Sequence record: OZ035804.1
Direction: 5' to 3' (one strand)
From: Vectrevirus PDP21P3
Length of the DNA: 45,588 nucleotides
The translations under genes were made by a program, and so were the position numbers. Shown here piece after piece: positions 4,003-30,255 of the stretch. The notes below the pieces were generated by a model. The model saw only the letters and a list, made by a program, of their open reading frames with translations. It had not been told where the DNA came from and made no database searches. Positions within the stretch are counted from its first letter, which is position 1. Each line of letters opens with the position of its first letter.

Positions 4003-5910
4003 ATGGCTAAATTAACCAAACCTAATACTGAAGGAATCTTGCATAAGGAAGACTCTTTGTATGAGTACCTTGATGCGAGAGAGAGTATAGTTTTAACATC
4101 AAAGCCGTTTGGTGCAGTAGGTGATGCTACTACTGATGATACGGAGGTTATAGCTGCTTCACTAAACTCTCAAAAAGCTGTCACAGTCTCAGACGGTGTA
4201 TTCTCTAGCTCTGGTATTAATAGTAATTACTGTAACTTAGACGGTAGAGGTAGCGGGGTGCTAAGTCACCGTTCCAGTACAGGTAACTACTTAGTATTTA
4301 ACAATCTACGTGCAGGTCGCTTAAGTAATATTACGGTAGAGAGTAATAAGGCGACTGATGATACTCAGGGACAGCAGGTATCTCTTGCTGGTGGCAGTGA
4401 TGTTACTGTAAGTGACGTTAACTTCTCAAACGTTAAAGGTACTGGTTTCAGTTTAATAGCATACCCTAATGGTGAGCAACCTAATGGGCTTATGATTAAA
4501 GGCATTCGAGGTAGCTACTCCGGCTATGCTACTAATAAGGCTGCTGGGTGCGTACTTGCTGACTCCTCAGTTAACTCTCTCATAGATAACGTAATTGCTA
4601 AGAGCTATCCTCAGTTCGGAGCTGTAGAGCTGAAAGGTACAGCCAGTTATAACATAGTAAGTAATGTTATAGGGGCAGATTGCCAGCATGTAACTTACAA
4701 TGGCACTGAAGGGCCAATAGCTCCTTCTAATAACCTTATCAAAGGGGTGATGGCTAATAACCCTAAGTATGCAGCGGTTGTTGCAGGAAAAGGAAGTACG
4801 AACTTAATCTCAGACGTGCTCGTAGATTACTCAACTTCTGATGCTAGGCAGGCTCATGGTGTTACCGTAGAAGGGTCTGATAACGTCATAAATAATGTGC
4901 TTATGTCAGGATGTGATGGTACTAACTCTTTAGGACAAGGGCAGACTGCTACAATTGCACGCTTTATAGGTACAGCTACTAACAACTATGCGTCTGTATT
5001 TCCTAGCTACAGTGCTACAGGTGTTATTACTTTCGAATCCGGCTCTACCCGTAACTTCGTAGAGGTAAAGCACCCTGGCAGGAGAAACGACCTTCTCAGT
5101 TCTGCTAGTACTATTGACGGTGCAGCTACTATTGACGGCACTAGTAATAGTAACGTAGTGCACGCACCCGCATTAGGACAGTACATAGGTAGTATGTCAG
5201 GTAGGTTCGAATGGAGGGTTAAGTCCATGTCACTTCCGTCAGGCGTTCTTACCTCGGCTGATAAGTACAGAATGCTTGGGGATGGTGCTGTGTCATTAGC
5301 TGTAGGTGGGGGCACTTCTTCTCAAGTTCGCCTATTTACTTCTGATGGTACCTCTCGTACAGTGTCCCTCACCAACGGTAACGTGCGTCTTTCTACCAGT
5401 AGCACAGGCTATTTGCAGTTAGGTGCTGATGCAATGACCCCAGATAGTACTGATACATACGCATTAGGTTCCGCCAGTAGAGCATGGTCTGGCGGTTTTA
5501 CTCAAGCAGCATTCACTGTTACCTCAGATGCTCGGTGTAAAACAGAACCTCTTACTATCTCAGATGCTTTACTGGATGCTTGGTCTGAAGTTGACTTTGT
5601 GCAGTTTCAGTATTTGGATCGGGTTGAGGAGAAGGGTGCAGACTCAGCGAGATGGCACTTTGGTGTCATCGCTCAGCGAGCTAAGGAGGCTTTCGAACGT
5701 CACGGCATAGATGCACACCGCTATGGCTTCTTGTGCTTCGACAGTTGGGATGATGTATACGAGGAAGATGCCAATGGCTCTCGTAAACTGATTACACCAG
5801 CAGGTTCCCGCTACGGTATTCGTTACGAGGAAGTATTGATATTAGAGGCTGCGTTGATGCGGCGGACTATTAAGCGTATGCAGGAAGCACTAGCTGCCCT
5901 TCCTAAGTAA
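4003..5910 (+). CDS. tailspike 1, pectate-lyase-like beta-helix with C-terminal intramolecular chaperone (S74-like) domain
   Basis: ATG 5 nt after AGGAGA (track start 3943 is a TTG); FGAVGDATTDDTEVI pectate-lyase-type motif; C-terminal ~130 aa with TSDARCK autoproteolysis-type motif as in endosialidase/K5-lyase-type tail proteins. Confidence 0.8.
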   Translation: MAKLTKPNTEGILHKEDSLYEYLDARESIVLTSKPFGAVGDATTDDTEVIAASLNSQKAVTVSDGVFSSSGINSNYCNLDGRGSGVLSHRSSTGNYLVFNNLRAGRLSNITVESNKATDDTQGQQVSLAGGSDVTVSDVNFSNVKGTGFSLIAYPNGEQPNGLMIKGIRGSYSGYATNKAAGCVLADSSVNSLIDNVIAKSYPQFGAVELKGTASYNIVSNVIGADCQHVTYNGTEGPIAPSNNLIKGVMANNPKYAAVVAGKGSTNLISDVLVDYSTSDARQAHGVTVEGSDNVINNVLMSGCDGTNSLGQGQTATIARFIGTATNNYASVFPSYSATGVITFESGSTRNFVEVKHPGRRNDLLSSASTIDGAATIDGTSNSNVVHAPALGQYIGSMSGRFEWRVKSMSLPSGVLTSADKYRMLGDGAVSLAVGGGTSSQVRLFTSDGTSRTVSLTNGNVRLSTSSTGYLQLGADAMTPDSTDTYALGSASRAWSGGFTQAAFTVTSDARCKTEPLTISDALLDAWSEVDFVQFQYLDRVEEKGADSARWHFGVIAQRAKEAFERHGIDAHRYGFLCFDSWDDVYEEDANGSRKLITPAGSRYGIRYEEVLILEAALMRRTIKRMQEALAALPK

Positions 5911-5995: not shown

Positions 5996-7792
5996 ATGCT
6001 TCAAAGATTAAGCACTGCCTTGGTGCGGTATAAAAGTAAAATGTCAGGTGCAATAGGTCGTATATTGCAAGAAAGACTAGAAGATACGTTAAATGCAAAA
6101 GACTTTGGTGCAAAATGTAATGGAGTGGATGATGATACAACCCCTCTCAACAATGCAGCAACAGCAGCACGCCTTAAAGGAGTCAAACTCGTAATAACAG
6201 GGTCTTGCCTAACAACTGACACAGTTAACTTTAGAGAGGTACTGCTAGAGGCATCAAGTGCTACGTTTATTATTAAACACGAGGGTGTTGGTGTTATCTT
6301 GGGTGGTAATGCAAGTGTGCACAATAACCCCAAGCAAGAGTTTGGTATGACAGAGAGACTTGTTGGGTCTGCATCTCTAGACGCTCCTGATGTACGTATA
6401 ATTGGTGCCAAGTGCCAACACATTAGCATAGAGAAGTCTGATTACCTTCAGCTATATGCAGATTCAGATGAATCAGTATATGAAAAGGACTACTCTATCG
6501 CGTATTCCACTTTTACCTTAAAGTATGTTAAAACAATCAACATACGCGGGATTAATCGTGGTTGGATTAATGAGAACCAGTTCTTCTTAAATAGAACACA
6601 TTTTGTGACAATACAAGATGGCAATTACTCTCATAACCACAATAAATTCTTTGGTGGCACTATGGAAGAGAAAGGTGCTATAGATATACAGAGAGGTCAT
6701 AATAATCACTTCTTTGGGCTTCGATTCGAAAGAGATGGCTCTAAGCCAGATAGGACACTAGACATCAAGTTTGGTTCTTATACATGGAATAATTCAATTG
6801 AAGCATCGTGGCTCAGCTCTGCTGCATATAGCAACGAACCCTATAACCCAAATAATCTTGTCACTGTTACAGATTTAGGTAGAGGTAATGCTGTACGCCA
6901 TATACAAGAAGATTTAACAGATGAGATCCCTTTGCTTTCACTAAGTGGAAAGGCAGACTACATCTCTAGTACCAACCTAGGTACTGTAAGCCAACCTGTT
7001 GTTATAACTAACTTCCCTAATATATATAATATTAGACACCTAGTATCAAGCAAGTTTTCTGTTGTAAGAAATTTCTACCCTATATGGGAGTCTGGTAATT
7101 TAGAGGTAAGGAATGGAGACTTATTCACATTCTGCTCTGATGTACCTATCTTCCGTATGCGTCTATTTATATTAGATGCGCAAGGTAATGTAATCACTGA
7201 GCAATTAGATGATGATGTATCATTCCCTGGTAGTTCTTGGAATGCACAATTAAGTATGTATACAAATACTACCAATATTGATGTTGCTAAAATACGTGTC
7301 ACTAATAGTTCTCGTATTAAATACATTCGTCTTGTCTTGATGTCTGGTGGTTCATCTCAAGATAGAATCTTTGAATATGCAAGAGTGACTGCAAGATACT
7401 ATAAGTATTCAAGCTCAACACCTCGTAAGAATATGGATGTTGCCTTAACCTCTTGCTCTGCTATGATGCCTTATAAGGGCGATGCAGAGATGCAATATAT
7501 GGGTTACGGTCTGCCTGTTGTTAAGATGGAAGATACGACTAAGAAGGTTAATATAACACGTAATAGGTATTCTGTTATTAATGTGTCTGGTTCTTCTATT
7601 AAGGTAAGGGTTTCAGGTAGTCTTATATCCGCAGATTCTAACGACTTACATCTTGTATATACAGAGGGTTCCGCTAATAAAATTATACCTATTCAGTCTT
7701 TATCGGATGATACTATTACTTTAACTTCTACTGCACCTACTACTATAGTAGCCAATAGCATGGTGGATGTAGTTTGTACAAAGCCGATGTGA
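5996..7792 (+). CDS. tailspike 2 (second receptor-binding/depolymerase-like protein)
   Basis: 598 aa, ATG 4 nt after AAAGGAGG; N-terminal DFGAKCNGVDDDT pectate-lyase-like motif; noticeably AT-rich; no phage promoter of its own. Confidence 0.7.
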   Translation: MLQRLSTALVRYKSKMSGAIGRILQERLEDTLNAKDFGAKCNGVDDDTTPLNNAATAARLKGVKLVITGSCLTTDTVNFREVLLEASSATFIIKHEGVGVILGGNASVHNNPKQEFGMTERLVGSASLDAPDVRIIGAKCQHISIEKSDYLQLYADSDESVYEKDYSIAYSTFTLKYVKTINIRGINRGWINENQFFLNRTHFVTIQDGNYSHNHNKFFGGTMEEKGAIDIQRGHNNHFFGLRFERDGSKPDRTLDIKFGSYTWNNSIEASWLSSAAYSNEPYNPNNLVTVTDLGRGNAVRHIQEDLTDEIPLLSLSGKADYISSTNLGTVSQPVVITNFPNIYNIRHLVSSKFSVVRNFYPIWESGNLEVRNGDLFTFCSDVPIFRMRLFILDAQGNVITEQLDDDVSFPGSSWNAQLSMYTNTTNIDVAKIRVTNSSRIKYIRLVLMSGGSSQDRIFEYARVTARYYKYSSSTPRKNMDVALTSCSAMMPYKGDAEMQYMGYGLPVVKMEDTTKKVNITRNRYSVINVSGSSIKVRVSGSLISADSNDLHLVYTEGSANKIIPIQSLSDDTITLTSTAPTTIVANSMVDVVCTKPM

Positions 7793-7798
7793 GGTAAT

Positions 7799-7948
7799 AT
7801 GCCTTTAATTAAATCAGTTAAGCAAAGTGCTGTACGCCAGAACACAGAAGAACTTATTCAATCAGGACGTGACCCTAAGCAAGCCTATGCGATTGCCAAG
7901 GATGTACAACGTCGTGCTATGAAGAAACCTTCTGCATCTTCTGCGTAA
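7799..7948 (+). CDS. hypothetical small basic protein
   Basis: 49 aa ORF (MPLIKSVKQSAVRQ…), GAGG 4 nt upstream; below the ORF-track length cutoff. Confidence 0.35.
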   Translation: MPLIKSVKQSAVRQNTEELIQSGRDPKQAYAIAKDVQRRAMKKPSASSA

Positions 7949-8018
7949 GCAGGTTAATATCTTAGTATAAACAAGGGCAGACTTAGGTTTGTCCTTAGTG
8001 TATTCCAAAGGAGGTAAC

Positions 8019-8147
8019 ATGCTGAAAGATGGTTGGGTTTCATATGACCCTACAGACCCTAAGAATTGGCTACAGGTTATCGCTATAGCTTGTGCAGGTA
8101 GCCTATTGGCTGCCCTGATGTATTCATTATGGATGTACACAAAGTAA
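8019..8147 (+). CDS. hypothetical small membrane protein
   Basis: 42 aa with C-terminal TM segment (VIAIACAGSLLAALMYSLWMY); strong RBS AAAGGAGG; last ORF before the non-coding terminal region. Confidence 0.4.
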   Translation: MLKDGWVSYDPTDPKNWLQVIAIACAGSLLAALMYSLWMYTK

Positions 8148-8379
8148 CCAAAGTCAAAATTTTGATGTAGGCGTGTGTCAGCTCTCTCGCCCTCGCCCTC
8201 GCCGGGTTGTCCCCATAGGGTGGCCTGAGGGAATCCGTCGAGGACGGGCAGGGCTGATGTACTCCTTGTACTAGCTTAGTAGTACACAAGGGCAGGCCGT
8301 ACTAGTTAGCTGGTACAGCCTAGTCTTTGCTCATGTACTAGCAAGGTGGAACGCTGGAGAACGCCTAGGACGGCCTAGG

Positions 8380-8890
8380 GATGGCTTAGTGGTGGACAAG
8401 GTGATTACCTTAGTGAAGCCTCTTAGTGCATTCCTGAGGCTATTCAGGACCATTCCTGAGCGTTTGACAGGGTGGGCGTGGGTGGGCTATCTGTTCGTTT
8501 GCTCGCTATCGCTCGCTGCACGCCTGTCGTGTACCTTAGGTTATTCCTTGATGGATAGCTTAGGTTAGCCTTAGTGGACTACCTTAGTTAAAGCCTTAGT
8601 GCTTAGCTTAGTATCAGCTTAGTAGTGTACCTTAGTAAGACTTAGTGTCTTCTCTTAGTGATTGCACATGCAAGCATGTAAGATGCCATTAGGTCGCGGT
8701 CGGTAGACCGCTAAAGAAAGAGAATAGTAATAAGATGCAGTAGGAGGAACACCAGAATCCTAGCCGACCTAGCCTATCCTGGCTCTGTATCTATTGCTTT
8801 TCCTTAGTCTCACATGTTAGACAACCTAGGTTTACCTTAGTAGTTGTGACATGTATCACATAAATAATCTATCTTAGTGAAATTTAGTGT
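8380..8890. repeat. array of short CTTAGT(G)/CCTTAGT direct repeats in non-coding region (likely genome-terminus region)
   Basis: about 20 irregularly spaced copies of cttagt read by eye, plus GC-rich mini-repeats just upstream (ctcgccctcgccctcgcc, gtgggcgtgggtgggc); T7-type genomes carry short repeat arrays next to their terminal repeats. Confidence 0.5.
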
Positions 8891-8918
8891 TGACACAGGC
8901 AAAAGCTAGTAGTACATT
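8890..8918 (+). promoter_or_regulatory. host sigma70-type early promoter candidate
   Basis: TTGACA - 17 nt - TACATT; lies at the start of the early region. Confidence 0.4.
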
Positions 8919-8968
8919 ACAGTCATCGGGAGGCAACATAGTCAAACGGTAGGCGACTTAAGTTGCCT

Positions 8969-8982
8969 TGCTCTTTAACAAT
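8969..8982 (+). promoter_or_regulatory. rrn boxA-like antitermination motif, copy 1
   Basis: TGCTCTTTAACAAT, identical over 14 nt to E. coli rrn boxA (TGCTCTTTAACAATTTA, from memory); preceded by an imperfect hairpin. Confidence 0.45.
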
Positions 8983-9023
8983 ATGGCTAGTGTCTTGATA
9001 GGCTAACTATCGAGGTAATTATC

Positions 9024-9155
9024 ATGCGTAACGTCACTATTTACATTGATGGTGTTTATTCTCACACTATGGCAGTTAATAAGGAAGTATCTAATGAGGC
9101 TGTTTTAGATTTACTGCTTAGTCAGGGACTACATGATGTAATTGTAGTGGGGTAA
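9024..9155 (+). CDS. hypothetical early peptide
   Basis: 43 aa ORF with GAGG RBS; not in ORF track (short). Confidence 0.3.
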   Translation: MRNVTIYIDGVYSHTMAVNKEVSNEAVLDLLLSQGLHDVIVVG

Positions 9156-9196
9156 GGTAAGTGCTGGCAATAGCCAGCCTATCAAGACACTGGCTG

Positions 9197-9209
9197 GCTC
9201 TTTAACAAT
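9197..9209 (+). promoter_or_regulatory. rrn boxA-like antitermination motif, copy 2
   Basis: GCTCTTTAACAAT preceded by hairpin GCTGGCaataGCCAGC. Confidence 0.45.
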
Positions 9210-9267
9210 CTGCTTAGTGTAACCTGTGTATGCCGTGGTTAATTACTTATTGAATGAGGAATTAACT

Positions 9268-9366
9268 ATGAATTACGAAAAACTGTATAAAGCCTATTAC
9301 TATAACGCATTAGTGAGAGGAGAAGAGCCTTTGTCTTATGCTGAGTTTGTGGAGGCTTTATCATGA
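9268..9366 (+). CDS. hypothetical early peptide
   Basis: 32 aa, GAGGA RBS 7 nt upstream, stop overlaps next ATG (ATGA). Confidence 0.25.
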   Translation: MNYEKLYKAYYYNALVRGEEPLSYAEFVEALS

Positions 9367-9548
9367 CACTGAATAGCCGTGAACTATCCGTTCTCTTCAC
9401 CTTGTTATGCTATATGATATATAGAAATGAGTCACTCAGTGATGATGAGTTGTCTTTGTATCACCGCTTTCTTAACGATGGTTGGGTGGATACATTAAAC
9501 CAGAAACGTGACTTGATGAAGGAGTTAATTAATGATTCAGTTAACTGA
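9363..9548 (+). CDS. hypothetical early protein
   Basis: 61 aa ORF translationally coupled to neighbours. Confidence 0.4.
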   Translation: MTLNSRELSVLFTLLCYMIYRNESLSDDELSLYHRFLNDGWVDTLNQKRDLMKELINDSVN

Positions 9549-9681
9549 AGACCAATTAAAGCAAATCTTAGTTGATGCGTGGTTTGCTGGTCATGAAACA
9601 TCTCAATACACACCTAACGCTTATGGCGATGCTAACAGATATGCACGTTCTGTATTAAAGGAGGTTAAAGAGGATGCATAA
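9532..9681 (+). CDS. hypothetical early peptide
   Basis: 49 aa, GGAG upstream, overlaps the stop of the previous ORF and the start of the next. Confidence 0.3.
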   Translation: MIQLTEDQLKQILVDAWFAGHETSQYTPNAYGDANRYARSVLKEVKEDA

Positions 9682-9898
9682 ACACGAAATCTTTCTTAAT
9701 TCAGGAAGTGAGGCACTCCGATTACTAGAAGATATGGAACAGGCTGGCGTAGCTGCTGACCTCACAACCTTTCTTCTGGACTATGACAGAGATTATTACC
9801 GCGTTACCTTAGTGACTGAGTATGATAACCCAGTCATCACTGAGTACTTAGGTAGTGAAGATTATGATTACGATGAAGTAATCACAACAAATCTCTAA
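9674..9898 (+). CDS. hypothetical acidic early protein
   Basis: 74 aa, RBS AAGGAGG; strongly acidic Tyr/Asp-rich C-terminus. Confidence 0.45.
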   Translation: MHKHEIFLNSGSEALRLLEDMEQAGVAADLTTFLLDYDRDYYRVTLVTEYDNPVITEYLGSEDYDYDEVITTNL

Positions 9899-9905
9899 AT
9901 AACTG

Positions 9906-9934
9906 TTGACAGCCACGGCATACAAGGTTACATT
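9906..9934 (+). promoter_or_regulatory. host sigma70-type early promoter candidate
   Basis: TTGACA - 17 nt - TACATT, same architecture as the 8890 site, upstream of ocr. Confidence 0.45.
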
Positions 9935-9967
9935 AAGCATCAAGACGGCGACGTCTTTAAACATCCC

Positions 9968-9982
9968 GCTCTTTAACAATTT
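9968..9982 (+). promoter_or_regulatory. rrn boxA-like antitermination motif, copy 3
   Basis: GCTCTTTAACAATTT (15/15 to rrn boxA core), ~35 nt after the 9906 promoter -10; preceded by hairpin GACGgcgaCGTC. Confidence 0.5.
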
Positions 9983-10076
9983 GGATAGGTAGCTTCTTAG
10001 TCGGGATAGGTTAAATCTAGGAGATTCTCTTGAGTCTCCTATAATGTAACCTAACTAACTAAATGAGGATTAAATC

Positions 10077-10409
10077 ATGAAACGTGATGCAAACGCTTAT
10101 TATGAACTTCTGGCTGCAACTGTTGAAGCATTCAACGAGCGCATTAAATACGATGGTATCCGTGAAGGTGATGATTATTCTGATGCACTTCATGAGGTTG
10201 TAGGCGGCAATGTGCCGCACTATTATCATGAAATCTTTACTGTGATGGCTGCAGATGGCATTGATATCGAATTCGACGATGCTGGCTTGATTCCTGACAC
10301 TAAGGACGTAACCAAGATTCTACAGGCTCGCATTTATGAGGCGCTTTATAATGATGTGCCAAATAATAGCAGTGTAGTTTGGTATGAAGACGAAGAAGAG
10401 GAAGAATAA
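10077..10409 (+). CDS. ocr: Ocr-like anti-restriction DNA mimic (T7 gp0.3 homolog)
   Basis: ERIKYDGIREGDDYSDALHEVVGGNVPHYYHEIFTVMAADGIDIEFDDAGLIPDTKDVTKILQARIYE aligns closely with T7 Ocr as remembered; acidic poly-Glu C-terminus. Confidence 0.85.
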   Translation: MKRDANAYYELLAATVEAFNERIKYDGIREGDDYSDALHEVVGGNVPHYYHEIFTVMAADGIDIEFDDAGLIPDTKDVTKILQARIYEALYNDVPNNSSVVWYEDEEEEE

Positions 10410-10411
10410 AG

Positions 10412-10522
10412 ATGGAAAGGCAATATAATTTCATCTTTTCAGATGGTGTAACCCTGAAGTGTTCCCTCCGATTCGCACAGATTCGCGAGGAAGTGCTAGG
10501 TACTACATATAAACTATTTATC
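10412..10522 (+). CDS. hypothetical early peptide
   Basis: 36 aa ORF after ocr; weak support. Confidence 0.25.
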
Positions 10523-10536
10523 TGACACTATAAGAG
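10513..10536 (+). promoter_or_regulatory. degenerate phage-promoter-like site
   Basis: tatCTGACACTATAAGAGAGG resembles the consensus but with two single-base deletions; intergenic, upstream of the 10605 gene. Confidence 0.3.
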
Positions 10537-10604
10537 AGGATTTAACAGGGCGTTACTTGTTAGCGCCCGATTAAGTTTATCTCAATAAACCAAATAGGTG
10601 ACTT

Positions 10605-11489
10605 ATGACTACTGAAAACACCCTCCTGTCTGTTCGTGAAGCTGCAACCGCTGAAATCAAGCAACATTTGGATAATATCGGCACTTCTTACATCAAAGTA
10701 GGTGCTTGTCTGAATGAGTTACGCGGTGACTTTGAAGGTCAAAAAGACTTTTTGGCTTATGTAGAATCAGAATTTGGAATCAAGAAAGCACAATGCTACA
10801 AGTTGATGAGCGTGGCGCGTGTCTTTGAAGGCGATGATCGCTTTAAAGGCGTGGCGATGCGTGTAATGCTGGCACTTGTTCCTTTCGCTGATGAAAATAT
10901 CATCATGGAGAAAGCCGCAGAACTTGCCGCAGCGGGCAAGCTGGACACTAACGCCGTGAACGCCCTGATTGAGCCTAAGAAAGAGCCAAAGTCTGAGACG
11001 GTACAACCCAAGGCTGAGCCTGTAAAACCGCAGGAGAACGCGACTGCGGCCGCAGAATCACAGGAAACGCAAGCGCCGCAGGAAGTGCCGCCAGCAAGTG
11101 AGTCGGATGACGACAAATCAGCACCGTGGGAAGAGGAAAGCAAGCCGGAAGCGCCAAAGGCCGCGCCACTGGACAACACGGCTAACACTGAAAACGCCGC
11201 TATGGCTGGCCTACTGGCACAAATTAAGGCACTGACTGAGCAATTACAGGCAGCTAACGACCGCATCGCCGCCCTAACCAGTGCACGCGAAAGCAAGAAG
11301 GCAGCCGCGCCTATGCTTCCACAGTTTAAATCCTCTTGCTTTTACGCTCGCTTAGGTTTGAGCGCTGAAGAGGCAACGAAGAAAACTGCTGTTAACAAAG
11401 CACGCCGCGAACTGGTTAAACTGGGTTACGGTGAAGGACACGAGGCATGGCCTTTAATCTCTGAGGCAGTAGAAGAATTGACCAAGTAA
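10605..11489 (+). CDS. early protein of unknown function with acidic Pro/Glu/Ala-rich linker
   Basis: 294 aa; structured N- and C-terminal regions separated by a low-complexity segment (…PKKEPKSETVQPKAEPVKPQENATAAAESQETQAPQEVPP…); occupies the position of T7 gene 0.7 but shows no kinase motifs. Confidence 0.6.
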   Translation: MTTENTLLSVREAATAEIKQHLDNIGTSYIKVGACLNELRGDFEGQKDFLAYVESEFGIKKAQCYKLMSVARVFEGDDRFKGVAMRVMLALVPFADENIIMEKAAELAAAGKLDTNAVNALIEPKKEPKSETVQPKAEPVKPQENATAAAESQETQAPQEVPPASESDDDKSAPWEEESKPEAPKAAPLDNTANTENAAMAGLLAQIKALTEQLQAANDRIAALTSARESKKAAAPMLPQFKSSCFYARLGLSAEEATKKTAVNKARRELVKLGYGEGHEAWPLISEAVEELTK

Positions 11490-11552
11490 CCTTATCGGTG
11501 GCATCTTCTTAGGTGTCACCTATTAAGGTTTCTTTAACTGGGAGTACACAAA

Positions 11553-14180
11553 ATGCAGGACTTATACGCTATCCAGCTTCAGCTTGAAGAAGAGATGTTT
11601 AATGGTGGTATCCGTCGCTTTGAAGCAGACCAACAACGCCAGATTGCATCCGGTAATGAATCCGACACGGCATGGAATCGCCGCTTATTGTCTGAGTTAA
11701 TCGCACCGATGGCGGAAGGTATTCAGGCTTATAAGGAAGAGTATGAAGGCAAGCGCGGTCGTGCACCGCGTGCATTGGCTTTCATTAACTGCGTAGAAAA
11801 TGAAGTGGCAGCGTATATCACGATGAAAATCGTAATGGATATGCTTAATAATGATGTGACTTTGCAGGCTATAGCCATGAATGTAGCTGACCGCATAGAA
11901 GACCAAGTGCGCTTCAGCAAGCTGGAAGGACACGCCGCCAAATACTTTGAGAAAGTTAAGAAGTCACTTAAGGCAAGTAAGACTAAATCATATCGCCACG
12001 CGCACAACGTAGCGGTAGTGGCTGAGAAGTCAGTGGCCGACCGTGACGCAGACTTCTCCCGCTGGGAAGCGTGGCCTAAGGATACCTTGCTACAAATCGG
12101 GATGACCTTGCTCGAAATACTGGAGAATAGCGTATTCTTCAACGGGCAGCCTGTTTTCCTCCGCACCTTGCGCACTAACGGCGGCAAGCATGGCGTTTAC
12201 TACTTACAGACTAGCGAACACGTGGGTGAATGGATAACTGCATTTAAAGAGCACGTAGCGCAATTAAGTCCTGCCTATGCGCCTTGCGTTATTCCTCCTC
12301 GTCCGTGGGTTTCTCCGTTTAATGGTGGCTTCCATACCGAGAAGGTGGCGAGTCGTATTCGTCTGGTTAAAGGAAACCGCGAGCACGTCCGCAAGCTGAC
12401 CAAAAAGCAAATGCCAGCGGTTTACAAGGCTGTTAACGCTTTGCAGGCGACTAAGTGGCAGGTTAATAAAGAGGTTTTGCAGGTAGTAGAGGACGTTATC
12501 CGTCTCGACCTTGGTTATGGTGTGCCTTCCTTTAAACCACTCATCGACCGTGAGAACAAGCCAGCTAATCCAGTGCCGTTAGAGTTCCAGCACCTGCGAG
12601 GCCGTGAACTTAAAGAGATGCTAACGCCGGAACAATGGCAAGCCTTCATCAACTGGAAAGGCGAATGTACCAAGCTGTATACCGCTGAAACTAAGCGCGG
12701 CAGCAAGTCGGCGGCAACCGTTCGCATGGTCGGGCAGGCCCGTAAATACAGTCAGTTTGACGCAATATACTTCGTGTATGCACTGGATAGCCGTTCACGC
12801 GTTTATGCGCAATCTAGCACGCTCTCGCCGCAATCAAACGACCTAGGCAAGGCGTTACTGCGTTTCACCGAAGGGCAGCCTCTAAATAGCTCTGAGGCGC
12901 TTAAGTGGTTTTTGGTGAACGGTGCTAATAACTGGGGTTGGGATAAGAAAACTTTCGACGTCCGCACCGCTAACGTGTTAGATGGTGAATTCCAAGACAT
13001 GTGCCGCGATATTGCAGCCGACCCGCTGACTTTTACTCAATGGGTGAATGCTGACTCCCCTTATGGCTTCCTTGCATGGTGCTTTGAATATGCGCGTTAT
13101 CTGGATGCACTGGATGAAGGCACGCAAGACCAATTCATGACGCACCTACCCGTCCATCAAGACGGTAGTTGCTCTGGTATCCAGCACTATAGCGCGATGT
13201 TACGCGATGAAGTAGGTGCGAAAGCAGTAAACCTTAAGCCTTCTGACTCCCCTCAAGATATTTATGGCGCGGTTGCGCAGGTTGTTATCCAGAAGAATTA
13301 CGCTTACATGAATGCAGATGATGCAGAGACGTTCACATCTGGAAGCGTCACACTTACAGGTGCAGAACTGCGTAGCATGGCTAGCGCATGGGATATGATA
13401 GGTATCACTCGCGGATTAACCAAAAAGCCGGTAATGACCTTGCCGTATGGCTCTACCCGCTTAACATGCCGTGAGTCAGTGATTGATTATATTGTTGATT
13501 TGGAAGAAAAAGAGGCACAAAGGGCTATTGCAGAAGGGCGGACGGCTAATCCGGTGCACCCTTTTGATAATGACCGTAAAGATTATTTAACACCGGGCGC
13601 AGCTTATAACTACATGACCGCGTTAATTTGGCCTTCTATCTCTGAGGTTGTTAAAGCACCTATAGTGGCGATGAAAATGATTCGCCAACTCGCACGATTC
13701 GCAGCTAAAAGAAACGAAGGGTTAGAATATCCCTTGCCTACTGGCTTTATCTTGCAACAAAAGATAATGGCTACCGACATGCTACGCGTATCCACTTGCT
13801 TGATGGGTGAAATCAAGATGAGTCTACAGATTGAGACTGATGTAGTGGATGAAACGGCAATGATGGGCGCTGCCGCTCCCAACTTTGTTCACGGGCATGA
13901 TGCTAGTCATCTCATCCTGACTGTATGTGACCTCGTTGATAAGGGCATTACATCCATCGCAGTCATCCATGATTCCTTTGGTACTCATGCAGGCCGTACA
14001 GCAGACCTGCGGGATAGCTTAAGGGCAGAAATGGTGAAGATGTATCAAGGTCGTAATGCCCTGCAAAGCCTGTTAGATGAGCATGAAGAACGCTGGTTAG
14101 TAGACACCGGAATCCAAGTGCCAGAGCAAGGAGAATTTGACCTTAACGAAATCTTAGTATCTGACTATTGCTTCGCATAA
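11553..14180 (+). CDS. single-subunit DNA-directed RNA polymerase (T7/SP6 type)
   Basis: 875 aa (SP6 RNAP is ~874); motifs [18 protein letters not shown]-terminal …CFA; RBS GGGAG. Confidence 0.95.
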
Positions 14181-14250
14181 TATTAATAGGCCATTCCTTA
14201 GGGAGTGGCCTTTTCTTTTACCTACTACCGGTAACATTTCATTAACATAA

Positions 14251-14270
14251 AGTGTCTCACATGTGAGACT
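14251..14270 (+). repeat. conserved palindrome copy a (agtGTCTCACATGTGAGACtta)
   Basis: perfect palindrome between RNAP stop and next promoter. Confidence 0.8.
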
Positions 14271-14271
14271 T

Positions 14272-14294
14272 ATTTACCGGACACTATAGGATAG
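14272..14294 (+). promoter_or_regulatory. phage RNAP promoter
   Basis: ATTTACCGGACACTATAGGATAG; +1 G at 14289 followed by 5' hairpin CCGTCggaGACGG. Confidence 0.7.
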
Positions 14295-14435
14295 CCGTCG
14301 GAGACGGGAAAGAAAGGGAAGATAAAGGATATAAAAGGAAGTAATAGGTATTAAAGGTTATATAGGTTATCTAGGAATACCTATTACCTTCTTCCTTCCT
14401 CTTATTACTACTTAGAGGAAGGGCAGATCTAGGTT

Positions 14436-14451
14436 GTCTCACATGTGAGAC
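14436..14451 (+). repeat. conserved palindrome copy b
   Basis: GTCTCACATGTGAGAC. Confidence 0.8.
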
Positions 14452-14456
14452 TTCGT

Positions 14457-14479
14457 ATTTACCGGACAGTATAGATAAG
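14457..14479 (+). promoter_or_regulatory. phage RNAP promoter variant
   Basis: ATTTACCGGACAGTATAGATAAG (one mismatch in the core, C to G); upstream of gp1.1-like gene. Confidence 0.5.
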
Positions 14480-14504
14480 ACTAACTTACTTTGGAGATTT
14501 AACC

Positions 14505-14633
14505 ATGCGTAACTTTGAGAAGATGACCCGTAAAGCTAACCGTTTTGACATGGAAGAAGGGCAGACGAGAGGCAAGAAGCTGAATAAACCTGTCCGTGAC
14601 CGTGCATCTAAACGCGCTGCGTGGGAGTTCTAA
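14505..14633 (+). CDS. T7 gp1.1-like small basic protein
   Basis: MRNFEKMTRKANRFDMEEGQTRGKKLNKPVRDRASKRAAWEF resembles T7 gene 1.1 product (MRNFEKM… as remembered). Confidence 0.6.
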   Translation: MRNFEKMTRKANRFDMEEGQTRGKKLNKPVRDRASKRAAWEF

Positions 14634-14636
14634 GTT

Positions 14637-14855
14637 ATGGCTAAATATAGAATTAAGACGTGTTTAAATAGTCACGGACAAGAGCAATACATAGTACAAC
14701 GTAAAGTATTAGGTTTAATATGGGTCACGTGTATGGTGCCTATTGGTTATACTGATACAGAGGCTATATTCTGCACCGAAAGGGATGCAAAGAAGTTTAT
14801 CTCGAAGCGCAGAAAAGCTGACTCTTATCAACACAGAATTATTAAGGTGAATTAA
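14637..14855 (+). CDS. hypothetical protein
   Basis: 72 aa; stop overlaps primase/helicase ATG (TAATG). Confidence 0.45.
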   Translation: MAKYRIKTCLNSHGQEQYIVQRKVLGLIWVTCMVPIGYTDTEAIFCTERDAKKFISKRRKADSYQHRIIKVN

Positions 14856-16843
14856 TGGCGATAATCAATAACATCCAATGCCCCGCTTGCGCTAAGAACG
14901 GGCATGATAAGTCCTCTAATCATCTTATGATATTTGATGATGGTGCTGGCTACTGTAACCGTGGTCATTTCCATGATAACGGCAAACCTTACTACCATAA
15001 GCCGGAAGGTGGCATCGAGATAACCGAGTTGCCAATTACTGGCAATATCAAATATACACCTTCTCAATTCAAAGAAATGGAGAAGGAAGGGAAGTTAAGC
15101 GACCCTAAGCTACGCGCCATCGCACTTGGTGGTATGCGTATGAAAGACCGTTGGGAGGTCATGAATGAGCAAGAAAGGGCAGACCAAGAAGCAGAGTGGA
15201 AACTTGATGTTGAATGGTTCCTCACGCTTAAGCGTAAGAACCTTGTTTCCCGACACATTCGCGGCGACATTTGCGCATTGTATGATGTACGTGTCGGACA
15301 CGATGAAGAGGGTAGAGTCTCACGGCATTACTATCCACGCTTCGAAGGTGGAGAGTTAGTAGGTGCTAAGTGTCGTACCTTACCTAAAGATTTTAAGTTT
15401 GGTCACTTAGGTAAGCTCTTTGGTATCCAAGATCTTTTCGGTATGAATACTTTGTCTCACGTGTTAGACAAGGGAAGACGAAAGGATTGCTTACTTATTG
15501 TAGGCGGTGAACTTGATGCACTAGCAGCCCAGCAAATGCTCCTTGATTCTGCCAAAGGTACTAAGTGGGAGGGGCAACCTTATCATGTATGGTCTGTTAA
15601 CAAAGGTGAGTCTTGCCTTGAAGAGATAGTACAGAACCGAGAGCATATCGCCCAATTCAAGAAGATTATTTGGGGCTTTGATGGGGATGAGGTAGGACAG
15701 AAGCAGAACCAACAAGCGGCTCGCCTGTTTCCCGGCAAATCCTACATCCTTGAATACCCTTCTGGTTGCAAAGATGCCAACAAGGCATTGATGGCTGGTA
15801 AAGCCAAAGAATTTGTGGATGCTTGGTTTAATGCAAAGTCATCTGATGAAGTCTTTGGTAGCCAGATTAAATCTATCGCATCTCAAAGAGATAAGCTCAA
15901 GGCTGCACGTCCAGAACAAGGGCTGTCATGGCCTTGGCCTAAGCTAAACAAGGTAACGCTGGGTATCCGTAAGAATCAGCTTATCATTGTAGGTGCAGGC
16001 TCTGGTGTGGGTAAGACTGAGTTTCTCCGTGAAGTAGTTAAGCATCTCATTGAAGAACACGGTGAATCTGTAGGCATCATTTCTACAGAAGACCCGATGG
16101 TCAAAGTGTCCCGTGCTTTTATCGGCAAATGGATTGATAAGCGTATTGAGTTACCACCAACCAACGACCCGAAAGAAGATGGATACCGTGAGGTGTTCGA
16201 CTATACCGAGGAAGAAGCTAACGCCGCCATTGATTATGTAGCCGATACAGGGAAGCTGTTTGTAGCTGACCTAGAAGGTGACTACTCGATGGAGAAGGTA
16301 GAGCAGACCTGCCTTGAGTTTGAGGCTATGGGTATTTCCAATATCATCATTGATAACTTAACGGGGATTAAATTAGATGAGCGTGCTTTTGGTGGGAAGG
16401 TTGGTGCACTTGATGAATGCGTCAAGCGGATTGGTACTATCAAAGACCGACACCCAGTTACTATATTCCTTGTATCACACCTTACACGTCCTCCGGCAAA
16501 CCGTACCCAACACGAAGAAGGTGGCGAGGTTATCCTTTCTGACTTCCGAGGCTCAGGAGCTATCGGATTCTGGGCATCTTACGCCTTGGGGATTGAGCGT
16601 AACACAAGAGCTGAAACGCTTGATGAAAGAACTACCACGTACATTTCATGTGTCAAAGACCGCGACCAAGGAATATTTTCCGGTACTCGTATAATGCTTA
16701 AAGGCGATATTGCTACGGGTCGCTTACGTGAACCAGAGCAAAGATCTCGACCGTTTGATACTGGTGCTCCAAAAGAACAAACTGTACCAGAAGAAGTGGT
16801 TGATAAAGGAGGTTTTATTGCTGACGAAGTTGAAGAGTTTTGA
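14855..16843 (+). CDS. DNA primase/helicase (T7 gp4-like)
   Basis: N-terminal Cys4 zinc ribbon CPACAKNGH…YCNRGH; Walker A GAGSGVGKTEF; Walker B-like IIIDNL; acidic C-terminus ending EEF. Confidence 0.9.
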   Translation: MAIINNIQCPACAKNGHDKSSNHLMIFDDGAGYCNRGHFHDNGKPYYHKPEGGIEITELPITGNIKYTPSQFKEMEKEGKLSDPKLRAIALGGMRMKDRWEVMNEQERADQEAEWKLDVEWFLTLKRKNLVSRHIRGDICALYDVRVGHDEEGRVSRHYYPRFEGGELVGAKCRTLPKDFKFGHLGKLFGIQDLFGMNTLSHVLDKGRRKDCLLIVGGELDALAAQQMLLDSAKGTKWEGQPYHVWSVNKGESCLEEIVQNREHIAQFKKIIWGFDGDEVGQKQNQQAARLFPGKSYILEYPSGCKDANKALMAGKAKEFVDAWFNAKSSDEVFGSQIKSIASQRDKLKAARPEQGLSWPWPKLNKVTLGIRKNQLIIVGAGSGVGKTEFLREVVKHLIEEHGESVGIISTEDPMVKVSRAFIGKWIDKRIELPPTNDPKEDGYREVFDYTEEEANAAIDYVADTGKLFVADLEGDYSMEKVEQTCLEFEAMGISNIIIDNLTGIKLDERAFGGKVGALDECVKRIGTIKDRHPVTIFLVSHLTRPPANRTQHEEGGEVILSDFRGSGAIGFWASYALGIERNTRAETLDERTTTYISCVKDRDQGIFSGTRIMLKGDIATGRLREPEQRSRPFDTGAPKEQTVPEEVVDKGGFIADEVEEF

Positions 16844-29797: not shown

Positions 29798-30255
29798 TAC
29801 GTCCAGCTTCCTTCCTAGATATTCCTGAGATTATAAACCTTGGGAATAAATATGTGGAAGAGGAAGTCAAGGTAGTAGCCCATCACTCAGCCTCATGGAA
29901 TGCAGAACAAAGCGCACATAATCTTTGCGCATCTCTTAGTAGAGAAGATTTATTCCTATGGGTAGCTGTGGATGAAGGGCAGATTGTAGGATTCCTGTGG
30001 GCTGGCTATCACGAGTTAGCCCCTTGGACGCCTGTAAGAGTTGCCTCTGACATTCTCTTTTACATTATACCAGAGAAACGAGGGACACTACTCGGTATGC
30101 GTCTCATTAAGGCTCTTAAACAATGGGCCAATGAAAGTGAATGCTCTGAGGTTCGTCTATCTATCGCCTCTGGTATTAACGAAGAACGTGTCGGACGTAT
30201 GTATAAGCTACTTGGCTTTGAACCGTTTGGCACTGTGTATAACCTGAAGTTCTAA
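29794..30255 (+). CDS. GNAT-family N-acetyltransferase
   Basis: 153 aa; QIVGFLWAGY…RGTLLGMRLIKALKQWA region fits the acetyl-CoA binding motif (R/Q-x-x-G-x-G/A) of GNAT enzymes. Confidence 0.65.
   Translation: MIRPASFLDIPEIINLGNKYVEEEVKVVAHHSASWNAEQSAHNLCASLSREDLFLWVAVDEGQIVGFLWAGYHELAPWTPVRVASDILFYIIPEKRGTLLGMRLIKALKQWANESECSEVRLSIASGINEERVGRMYKLLGFEPFGTVYNLKF

Follow-up and report, generated by a model that had tools for sequence, protein, structure and literature searches.

Repeated rrn-type boxA elements, each followed by an RNA helix, in the host-transcribed early operon of Vectrevirus PDP21P3

Results

Three boxA elements lie in the early operon

Vectrevirus PDP21P3 (sequence record OZ035804.1; 45,588 nucleotides (nt), analysed at full length and here called the window) is a K1E/SP6-type phage that shares ~87% identity with Escherichia phage K1E and other Molineuxvirinae (the SP6/K1-5/K1E group) over the 2-kb region around the sites described below. 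Its record is circularly permuted, and alignment to K1E and mutPK1A2 places the inferred physical left end near 8176–8204. The early operon that follows carries small open reading frames (ORFs), an anti-restriction gene and the gene for the phage's own RNA polymerase (RNAP), together with three copies of a boxA-like 13-mer, each leading into one strand of an RNA helix (Table 1). This operon is laid out like a bacterial ribosomal RNA (rrn) operon and reproduces the geometry of Escherichia coli rrnB on messenger RNA.

The 13-mer GCTCTTTAACAAT occurs three times in the 45.6-kb genome, always on the plus strand, as compared to a mean of 0.01 occurrences in 100 dinucleotide-preserving shuffles of the whole window, none of which reached three. 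The published gamma-proteobacterial boxA consensus GYTCTTTAANA (PMC5725501) retrieves the same three sites only (0.23 expected), and the next-nearest site, a one-mismatch 13-mer at 30112, is at a level that shuffles produce as well. A previous sequence-only reading of this DNA, made without database searches, had proposed just such a motif, present thrice within ~1 kb and nowhere else, and had suggested this genome-wide count as a check. The claim stands, with the first start moved by one base (to 8970, given as 8969) and with the third copy indeed longer, reading GCTCTTTAACAATTT to 9982. The reading had likened the motif to the rrn boxA, and correctly so: the rrnB leader boxA of E. coli MG1655 reads ctGCTCTTTAACAATTTAtc within GCTCTTTAACAATTTA and matches the phage 13-mer at 13/13 positions, versus 10/13 for the lambda nutR and nutL boxA. 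Judged by the consensus or by the rrn boxA GCUCUUUAACAA, all three sites are of the rrn type. A search of 8200–10300 against Rfam returned no match at E ≤ 1.

With respect to the transcribing polymerase, all 11 SP6-type phage promoter cores (ACACTATAG) fall outside 8200–14211, the first of them at 14281, just past the early terminator; the boxA copies are therefore confined to the sole operon that host RNAP must read, as had been proposed. All three lie on the plus strand downstream of a sigma70-like TTGACA-N17-TACATT promoter, with no phage promoter core between the left end and 14188, suggesting that they are transcribed in the sense direction by the host enzyme. BoxA1 starts 52 nt and boxA3 34 nt past the −10 hexamers of promoters P1 and P2, respectively. 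Both promoters had been recognised previously, with two copies placed 50–90 nt downstream of them. In predicted folds of the 1161-nt transcript from P1, boxA2 is unpaired in both the minimum free energy (MFE) and the centroid structure, and boxA1 and boxA3 are unpaired in the centroid.

Table 1 Features of the early operon, with positions in the window

Feature	Position	Strand	Details
P1, sigma70-like promoter TTGACA-N17-TACATT	8890..8918	+	10/12 consensus; joint best in 7600–16000; ~700 nt from inferred left end
Leader hairpin adjoining boxA1, boxB-like position	8930..8969	+	−17.1 kcal/mol, z −2.97; counterpart in SP6
boxA1, GCTCTTTAACAAT	8970..8982	+	Exact copy; 13/13 with rrnB leader boxA
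Helix I, 5′ (leader) strand	8984..9010	+	1 nt after boxA1; predicted to pair with 9170–9196; 25-nt arms, 88% complementary
43-amino-acid (aa) ORF inside helix I	9024..9155	+	ORF list; no PHROG match
Helix I, 3′ (trailer) strand	9170..9196	+	0 nt before boxA2; gap 0–5 nt in relatives
boxA2, GCTCTTTAACAAT	9197..9209	+	Exact copy
Helix II, 5′ (leader) strand	9210..9241	+	0 nt after boxA2; predicted to pair with 9910–9940
Four small ORFs (32, 61, 49, 74 aa) inside helix II	9268..9898	+	ORF list; PHROG families of unknown function
P2, sigma70-like promoter TTGACA-N17-TACATT	9906..9934	+	10/12 consensus; joint best in 7600–16000
Helix II, 3′ (trailer) strand	9910..9940	+	Comprises P2 spacer, −10 hexamer and start region; ends 27 nt before boxA3
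Small hairpin between P2 and boxA3	9943..9956	+	Weak, z −1.2; absent from several relatives
boxA3, GCTCTTTAACAAT(TT)	9968..9980	+	Exact copy; 27 nt past helix II trailer strand
Helix III, local compound hairpin	9993..10068	+	−29.9 kcal/mol, z −3.3; reaches ocr ribosome-binding site
ocr-like anti-restriction gene, T7 gene 0.3 homologue	10077..10409	+	phrog_2568, E 1.8e-50
Two more ORFs between ocr and RNAP gene	10412–11489	+	ORF list
Phage single-subunit RNAP gene	11553..14180	+	875-aa ORF; final gene of host-transcribed operon
Intrinsic terminator closing early operon	14188..14211	+	10-bp stem (6 G-C) + TTTCTTTT; strongest terminator-like site in scan

The conserved partner of boxA is a downstream helix strand

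The sequence-only reading had placed every copy 3′ of a hairpin, in the boxB–boxA order of rrn leaders. This parallel is retained for boxA1, which adjoins its upstream hairpin (z about −3.0). The sequence before boxA2, by comparison, folds like its shuffles (z −0.3) and forms the 3′ strand of a long-range helix, and the weak hairpin before boxA3 is not conserved, being replaced by an unrelated leader in the IMG/VR relatives L010, L011 and L015. BoxB is reported to be dispensable in rrn (PMC8632103). Inspection of the 5′ strands for boxC found no convincing candidate: a CTGTGT resemblance occurs in helix II of the window only, most relatives reading CTATGT, and no arm sequence is conserved across lineages. 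A consensus scan scored as terminator-like a stretch (8951–8982) in which the hairpin AGGCGACTTAAGTTGCCT (8951–8968) runs into TGCTCTTTAA, where boxA1 begins; at such junctions of a hairpin or helix with a U-rich boxA, the polymerase might pause long enough for Nus factors to load.

The conserved partner of boxA is instead the helix strand downstream of it. Helix I, with ~20 contiguous base pairs (bp) plus extensions, has a duplex energy of −43.3 kcal/mol and encloses the 43-aa ORF; helix II, with ~29 bp and one bulge, reaches −48.1 kcal/mol and encloses the four ORFs that follow. Random 40-mers searched in the same way gave a mean of −28.0 kcal/mol (standard deviation 4.3). For the strand after boxA3, the best long-range partner scored at background (−26.2 kcal/mol), its partner being local, in the compound hairpin of helix III. 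In the P1 transcript, helices I, II and III are recovered in the MFE fold and again in the centroid fold. Helices I and II are thus predicted to attain the length associated with RNase III sites, for which ~20 bp or more of double-stranded RNA is expected to separate or surround cistrons, and helix III the topology of the T7 site R0.3. A leftward promoter in the 5′ arm of helix II was considered as well and rejected, as the promoter scan did not find one, and a PHROG search of the helix-enclosed ORFs returned families of unknown function only.

Compensatory evolution argues for the two long-range pairings. In the helix I family (13 sequences), 95.3% of alignment cells are paired, versus 23–43% with the partner slid, and six pairs show double-sided changes; in the helix II family (14 sequences), 97.4% are paired and eight pairs show double-sided changes, several of them in the promoter spacer. 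In 500 shuffles, no value as high as that observed was obtained for helix I in pairing, in double-change cells or in covariation score, or for helix II in any of five measures, although the aligned sequences are related to one another and these counts hence do not amount to probabilities. The TTGACA of P2 is invariant in 14 relatives, despite lying largely outside helix II. Non-Watson-Crick cells comprise 48 G·U and nine A·C, which points to plus-strand RNA rather than DNA cruciforms or antisense RNA. Single-sequence folds of helix III in relatives retain the topology, resembling T7 R0.3, with differing apical sequences; RNAalifold gave a poor consensus for this element (−1.4 kcal/mol) because MAFFT misaligned the divergent members.

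The spacing is equally regular. In nearly all relatives, the 5′ arm starts 0–1 nt after boxA, and where a following boxA could be scored, the gap from the 3′ arm to it is 0–5 nt (helix I type) or 15–28 nt (helix II type), with one exception of 105 nt. The long-range helices span 170–780 nt in the relatives examined. The same arrangement is found in rrnB: directly after the leader boxA (locus position 517), at offset 0, the strand TTATCAGACAATCTGTGTGGGCACTCG pairs with 2206–2248 immediately past the 16S 3′ end (−56.6 kcal/mol), and the spacer boxA (2523) precedes a strand that pairs just past the 23S 3′ end. The 16S leader-trailer helix of rrnB is an RNase III substrate.

BoxA is conserved among relatives and joins exchangeable modules

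Two to three consensus boxA are present in the early region of K1E, K1-5 and SP6 and of every IMG/VR relative with a locus that covers it, all on the plus strand except for one weak reverse-strand match. Across 47 unique contexts, the majority base has a frequency of 99% within boxA versus 43% in the upstream 25 nt, and boxA positions that the search pattern left free are conserved at 94–100%. The expectation that motif and upstream hairpin would be conserved together in SP6/K1-5-like phages was hence borne out for boxA, kept in two to three copies, and not for its variable upstream flanks; the outcome named beforehand as refuting the proposal, a motif that relatives lack, was not observed. 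The bases after boxA are constrained as well in the 47 contexts, with T at +14 (94%) and G at +15 (98%), giving GCTCTTTAACAAT-N-TG-G/C. A CTGG following boxA is common to T7 (826–829) and the rrnB spacer boxA (2536–2539), the corresponding window positions being 8983–8986, 9210–9213 and 9981–9984; these bases may extend the recognition element, or they may just form the base of the helix.

Further sites at the position of boxA3 include a third, degenerate boxA in SP6 (GATCTTTAACAAT, C2A; 1536–1548) and a fourth one in K1E (GCTCTTTTAACAAT, ~2237–2250) that contains one extra T, which could reflect a sequencing error or a weakened site. An upstream module consisting of P2 and a AAGACGgcgaCGTCTT hairpin joins the helix III module in the window, L008 and L020, and a leader strand of the helix I type in K1E, K1-5 and L005. 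Comparison of 8970–9982 of the window with relatives L002–L020, which carry two to four boxA sites per phage, marks boxA as a mosaic junction, a pattern that suggests recombination at this invariant sequence. We rejected the idea that the repeats arose when a larger module was duplicated, given that the direct-repeat family extends over only ~30 nt at 67–83% identity and that the flanks differ.

None of the GenBank/RefSeq records of seven phages (K1E, K1-5, SP6, mutPK1A2, T7, T3 and phiYeO3-12) annotates boxA, and RNase III sites are annotated only in those of T3 and phiYeO3-12.

The same layout recurs in distant phages

The combination of boxA and helix recurs, with unrelated arm sequences, in four phages: the IMG/VR contig L025 (44,366 bp), Alpheus, IME260 and T5. 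In Pseudomonas phage Alpheus (Colwellvirinae, MH113815; 883–1390), the boxA GCTCTTTAACAAC is followed at offset 0 by a long-range helix of −60.8 kcal/mol around two ORFs; the trailer strand, which includes TTGACA, stops 27 nt short of the next boxA, and the arms are unrelated to those of the SP6 group. The T5-like Klebsiella phage IME260 has its trailer strand inside a TTGACA-N17-TATTAT promoter, with the next boxA 10 nt further on, upstream of A2/A1. T5 itself (NC_005859, ~4680–5020, minus strand) carries the boxA GCTCTTTAAAAAT, identical to the rrnB spacer boxA and preceded by a hairpin, and then an offset-0 helix of −48.6 kcal/mol around T5.008, with TTGACA-N17-TAAGAT in the trailer strand. 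This boxA falls inside the annotated 35-aa coding sequence T5.009, so that T5.009 may not be a gene but an RNA element. Rrn-type boxA units also characterise the pre-early regions of T5-type phages (T5, IME260 and PM135), comprising leader-trailer helices with the trailer inside a sigma70 promoter, and Proteus phage PM135 has four plus-strand boxA within 1 kb near A2. Our literature search found no paper linking boxA with T5.

Taken together, covariation, G·U asymmetry and the complete turnover of arm sequences in Alpheus, T5 and IME260, with pairing in the families maintained at 95–97%, support a real plus-strand RNA structure.

Further features of the early region

The assignment of the last gene to the phage RNAP is based on the aligned K1E gene 7, annotated ‘putative RNA polymerase’, with 84–99% identity among relatives. 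Between the left end and P1, an array of CTTAGT (often CCTTAGT or CTTAGTG) occupies 8385–8873, so that 14 of the 33 plus-strand copies in the genome fall within ~490 nt of non-coding DNA; strings resembling CTTAGTG or CTAGTG are also present at the start of the helix leader strands. Past the early terminator, the perfect 16-bp palindrome GTCTCACATGTGAGAC occurs twice (14254–14269 and 14436–14451), each time directly upstream of one of the first two phage-promoter-like sequences (ATTTACCGGACACTATAGGATAG and ATTTACCGGACAGTATAGATAAG), and could be an operator or an RNA hairpin.

Discussion

A model for boxA–helix units

Our preferred interpretation, held with moderate confidence, is that the three motifs are functional rrn-type BoxA RNA elements that combine Nus-dependent antitermination with boxA–helix units for delivery, processing and reloading. 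Recruitment of Nus factors is the most plausible reading of the phage boxA, and the identical T7 site supports it. NusB–NusE (S10) would bind each boxA as it emerges in the nascent RNA. With NusA, NusG and SuhB joining in, host RNAP would be modified into an antitermination complex of the rrn type, which would gain speed, pause less often and withstand Rho. Such a complex could secure ~5 kb of read-through across short, loosely translated cassettes to the RNAP gene.

Each boxA would also open a unit of two parts, the second being a helix (20 bp or more) whose 5′ strand begins 0–1 nt later. Since boxA would stay fastened to the polymerase, the leader strand would be carried along and handed to its complement, transcribed 170–700 nt later, in the manner of the model proposed for the 16S leader-trailer helix. 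Helices I and II and the R0.3-like helix III would then most likely be the points at which RNase III divides the polycistronic early RNA into its cassettes, as their length, their intercistronic position, the topology of helix III and the analogy with rrn suggest. Cleavage by RNase III would sever the boxA tether, which would explain the need for a reloading boxA after each helix, and a fresh boxA 0–28 nt past each long-range trailer strand could reload the complex. If a trailer strand coincides with a promoter, RNA processed after read-through would begin at nearly the position at which that promoter starts new RNA.

Of the interpretation put forward in the sequence-only reading, namely that the phage recruits the host NusB/NusE complex for read-through to its RNAP gene, the rrn-type motif, its confinement to the early region and its conservation in relatives stand; the novelty claimed with respect to T7 and the boxB–boxA parallel beyond the first copy do not.

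Alternative readings

Several observations weigh against the proposed model. Inside the early operon, the scan found no strong terminator of the kind that would demand antitermination. The sole internal candidate (10548–10568, between the 37-aa and 294-aa ORFs) is a G+C-rich hairpin (GGGCGTTACTTGTTAGCGCCC) with a poor T-tract; it may be a weak terminator or processing site of a kind that polymerase in an antitermination complex would read past. Characterised RNase III sites of the T7 group are local hairpins rather than long-range helices, and for helices I and II cleavage is argued from their length and by analogy. Binding of Nus factors and SuhB, RNase III ends and the transcripts of this phage group are likewise predicted from sequence. 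The relatedness of the aligned phages tempers the shuffle results, and boxA being a junction of exchangeable modules, its adjacency to helices could partly reflect recombination history. Finally, across the heterogeneous set of all 120 other IMG/VR boxA contexts, downstream RNA is only slightly more structured than in controls (−26.8 versus −24.0 kcal/mol); boxA–helix coupling is therefore not universal, nor do we claim that it is.

Alternatively, boxA may act in classical antitermination only, against Rho and pausing, with the helices as independent RNase III or mRNA-stability elements and their adjacency a product of compact, modular intergenic regions. The T7 boxA, in the summary given in PMC3709561, is described simply as an anti-termination element, BoxA acts on targets other than rRNA, such as suhB (PMC5725501) and, according to the account in PMC7665894, CRISPR arrays, and both the shuffling of modules at the boxA junction and the weak enrichment of structure in other boxA contexts fit the same explanation. 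It does not anticipate, however, the very regular geometry, with the 5′ arm at 0–1 nt and, in nearly every case that was scored, a gap of 0–28 nt from the 3′ arm to the following boxA, nor the fact that this geometry holds across lineages without shared arm sequence (Alpheus, IME260 and T5) and equals that of the rrnB leader, where the coupling has experimental support (PMC8632103). We therefore regard antitermination alone as unlikely, if a serious contender. Regulation in the opposite direction appears highly improbable: by analogy with the suhB 5′ untranslated region (UTR), where Baniulyte et al. show BoxA-mediated repression with boxA upstream of the start codon (PMC5725501), the Nus complex at the phage elements would reduce transcription or translation of the cassettes after them and so tune early gene dosage. 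BoxA1 and boxA2 do end 42 and 59 nt before ATGs, and helix III reaches the ocr ribosome-binding region, but boxA3 is 97 nt from the ocr start, and among relatives it is the start-codon distances that vary while the boxA-to-arm distance is fixed. The T7 genetics summarised in PMC3709561 points to antitermination, and a virulent phage repressing its own RNAP operon would seem counter-productive.

A feature of the DNA could also account for the way in which phages differ in the modules joined on the two sides of boxA, and for the coincidence of one helix arm with a promoter; recombination sites or module boundaries, promoter-related repeats, cruciforms or sites for protein binding would come into question, and any likeness to rrn boxA would be incidental. 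Several lines of evidence speak against this, namely the 13/13 match to the host rrn boxA, which includes positions that the consensus does not require, an orientation that follows early transcription in SP6-type relatives, T7, T3 and T5, the excess of G·U over A·C cells in the helices and the compensatory changes at promoter-spacer positions. As the T7 site moreover has a genetic phenotype, going by the same summary (PMC3709561), we assign a purely DNA-level explanation hardly any probability.

Implications

Since boxA was already established in the early regions of T7-type phages, the motif by itself contributes little. What looks new is the architecture common to SP6-type, Alpheus and T5-type phages, in which boxA, leader strand, cargo, trailer strand (sometimes a promoter) and the next boxA form a repeated unit. 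The literature search, which did not cover the 2004 SP6/K1-5 genome papers, found no earlier description of this layout. If the boxA–helix model is true, the host machine for rRNA transcription and processing would be co-opted wholesale for phage mRNAs, in what would be the first case of the RNA-looping chaperone function of rrnTAC acting on mRNAs. The early operon would then offer a compact, mutable and host-non-essential model, with loops of 170–700 nt instead of rRNAs of 1.5–2.9 kb, both for testing rrnTAC delivery and RNA-looping and for asking why rrn operons carry a second, spacer boxA. In addition, boxA units could explain mosaic boundaries in early regions, draw attention to small ORFs called as ‘hypothetical’ where an RNA element lies (T5.009 is an example), and constitute cis elements relevant to the engineering of therapeutic K1/K5 phages.

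A wider proposal, which we advance tentatively and rate as somewhat less than probable, is that rRNA operons are mimicked in the early or pre-early operons of virulent phages in need of host RNAP early on, among them T5-type Demerecviridae, SP6/K1E-type phages and other Autographiviridae, and that these phages hijack the Nus/SuhB complex for antitermination and helix chaperoning, with reloading at successive boxA. Every ORF cassette would be closed by a leader-trailer helix that starts right behind an rrn-type boxA, and in several lineages the trailer strand would serve as a sigma70 promoter as well.

Comparison with known boxA systems

BoxA elements outside rRNA recruit Nus factors in the suhB 5′ UTR (PMC5725501) and in the leader of CRISPR arrays (PMC7665894). 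As far as these accounts describe them, both are single elements, unlike those of the window phage: they have no adjoining leader-trailer helix and are not repeated along one operon. In lambda, nutL and nutR likewise place BoxA RNA on phage early transcripts and recruit host NusB/NusE to host RNAP, as we suggest by analogy for the window phage. The lambda sites, however, require a 3′ boxB hairpin and the N protein, whereas the window has consensus rrn-type boxA followed by the strand of a long helix (or, at boxA3, of the compound hairpin); with a boxA match of 10/13 on the lambda side, the phage sites do not resemble lambda-type nut sites. No N-like protein was found among the early ORFs matching PHROG families.

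T7 provides the closest phage precedent. It carries GCTCTTTAACAAT at 813–825, between promoter A3 and gene 0.3, and this boxA acts in anti-termination, Gp2 no longer being needed once the element is mutated, according to the summary of Savalia 2010 in PMC3709561. BoxA antitermination in T7-type phages has thus already been described, and the sequence-only reading erred in regarding it as unreported for T7; for SP6-type phages (SP6, K1-5 and K1E), no description of boxA emerged from the literature search, within the coverage stated above. In T3 and phiYeO3-12, the 13-mer lies ~30 nt before the annotated RNase III site R0.3, and an IMG/VR scan located it at ~650–900 nt in dozens of T7-like contigs of 39–41 kb. 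As in the T7/T3 leader, where the identical 13-mer follows strong sigma70 promoters and directly precedes a compound hairpin ahead of ocr/0.3, the window combines P2, boxA3, helix III and ocr in a unit that is the direct counterpart. The T7 group differs in having one boxA and local RNase III hairpins only, as opposed to the two to four boxA of the window phage and its SP6/K1E relatives, in which the upstream boxA lead into long-range helices that enclose ORF cassettes, one trailer strand serving as a promoter as well. T7-type RNAPs themselves are reported not to work with Nus factors (PMC5725501).

The most extensive likeness is to the rrn operons, which contain nut-like sites in leader and spacer with boxA as the key element. 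There, a ring of Nus factors and SuhB holds the nut-like RNA in place at the exit channel of the polymerase, which allows boxC to be ‘delivered’ to the strand complementary to it, and the complex both antiterminates and chaperones the leader-trailer helix for RNase III (PMC8632103; PMC10250234). Phage and rrn operon share the boxA sequence, the offset-0 5′ strand of a 25–40-bp helix that closes around a cargo, a second boxA before the next helix and, at the first phage copy, a boxB-like hairpin directly upstream. They differ in that the phage cargo is translated mRNA of small ORFs, in that the phage has no convincing boxC and its upstream hairpins are not conserved, and in that the next boxA follows the phage trailer strand within 0–28 nt, as compared to ~275 nt, with a tRNA between, in rrnB.

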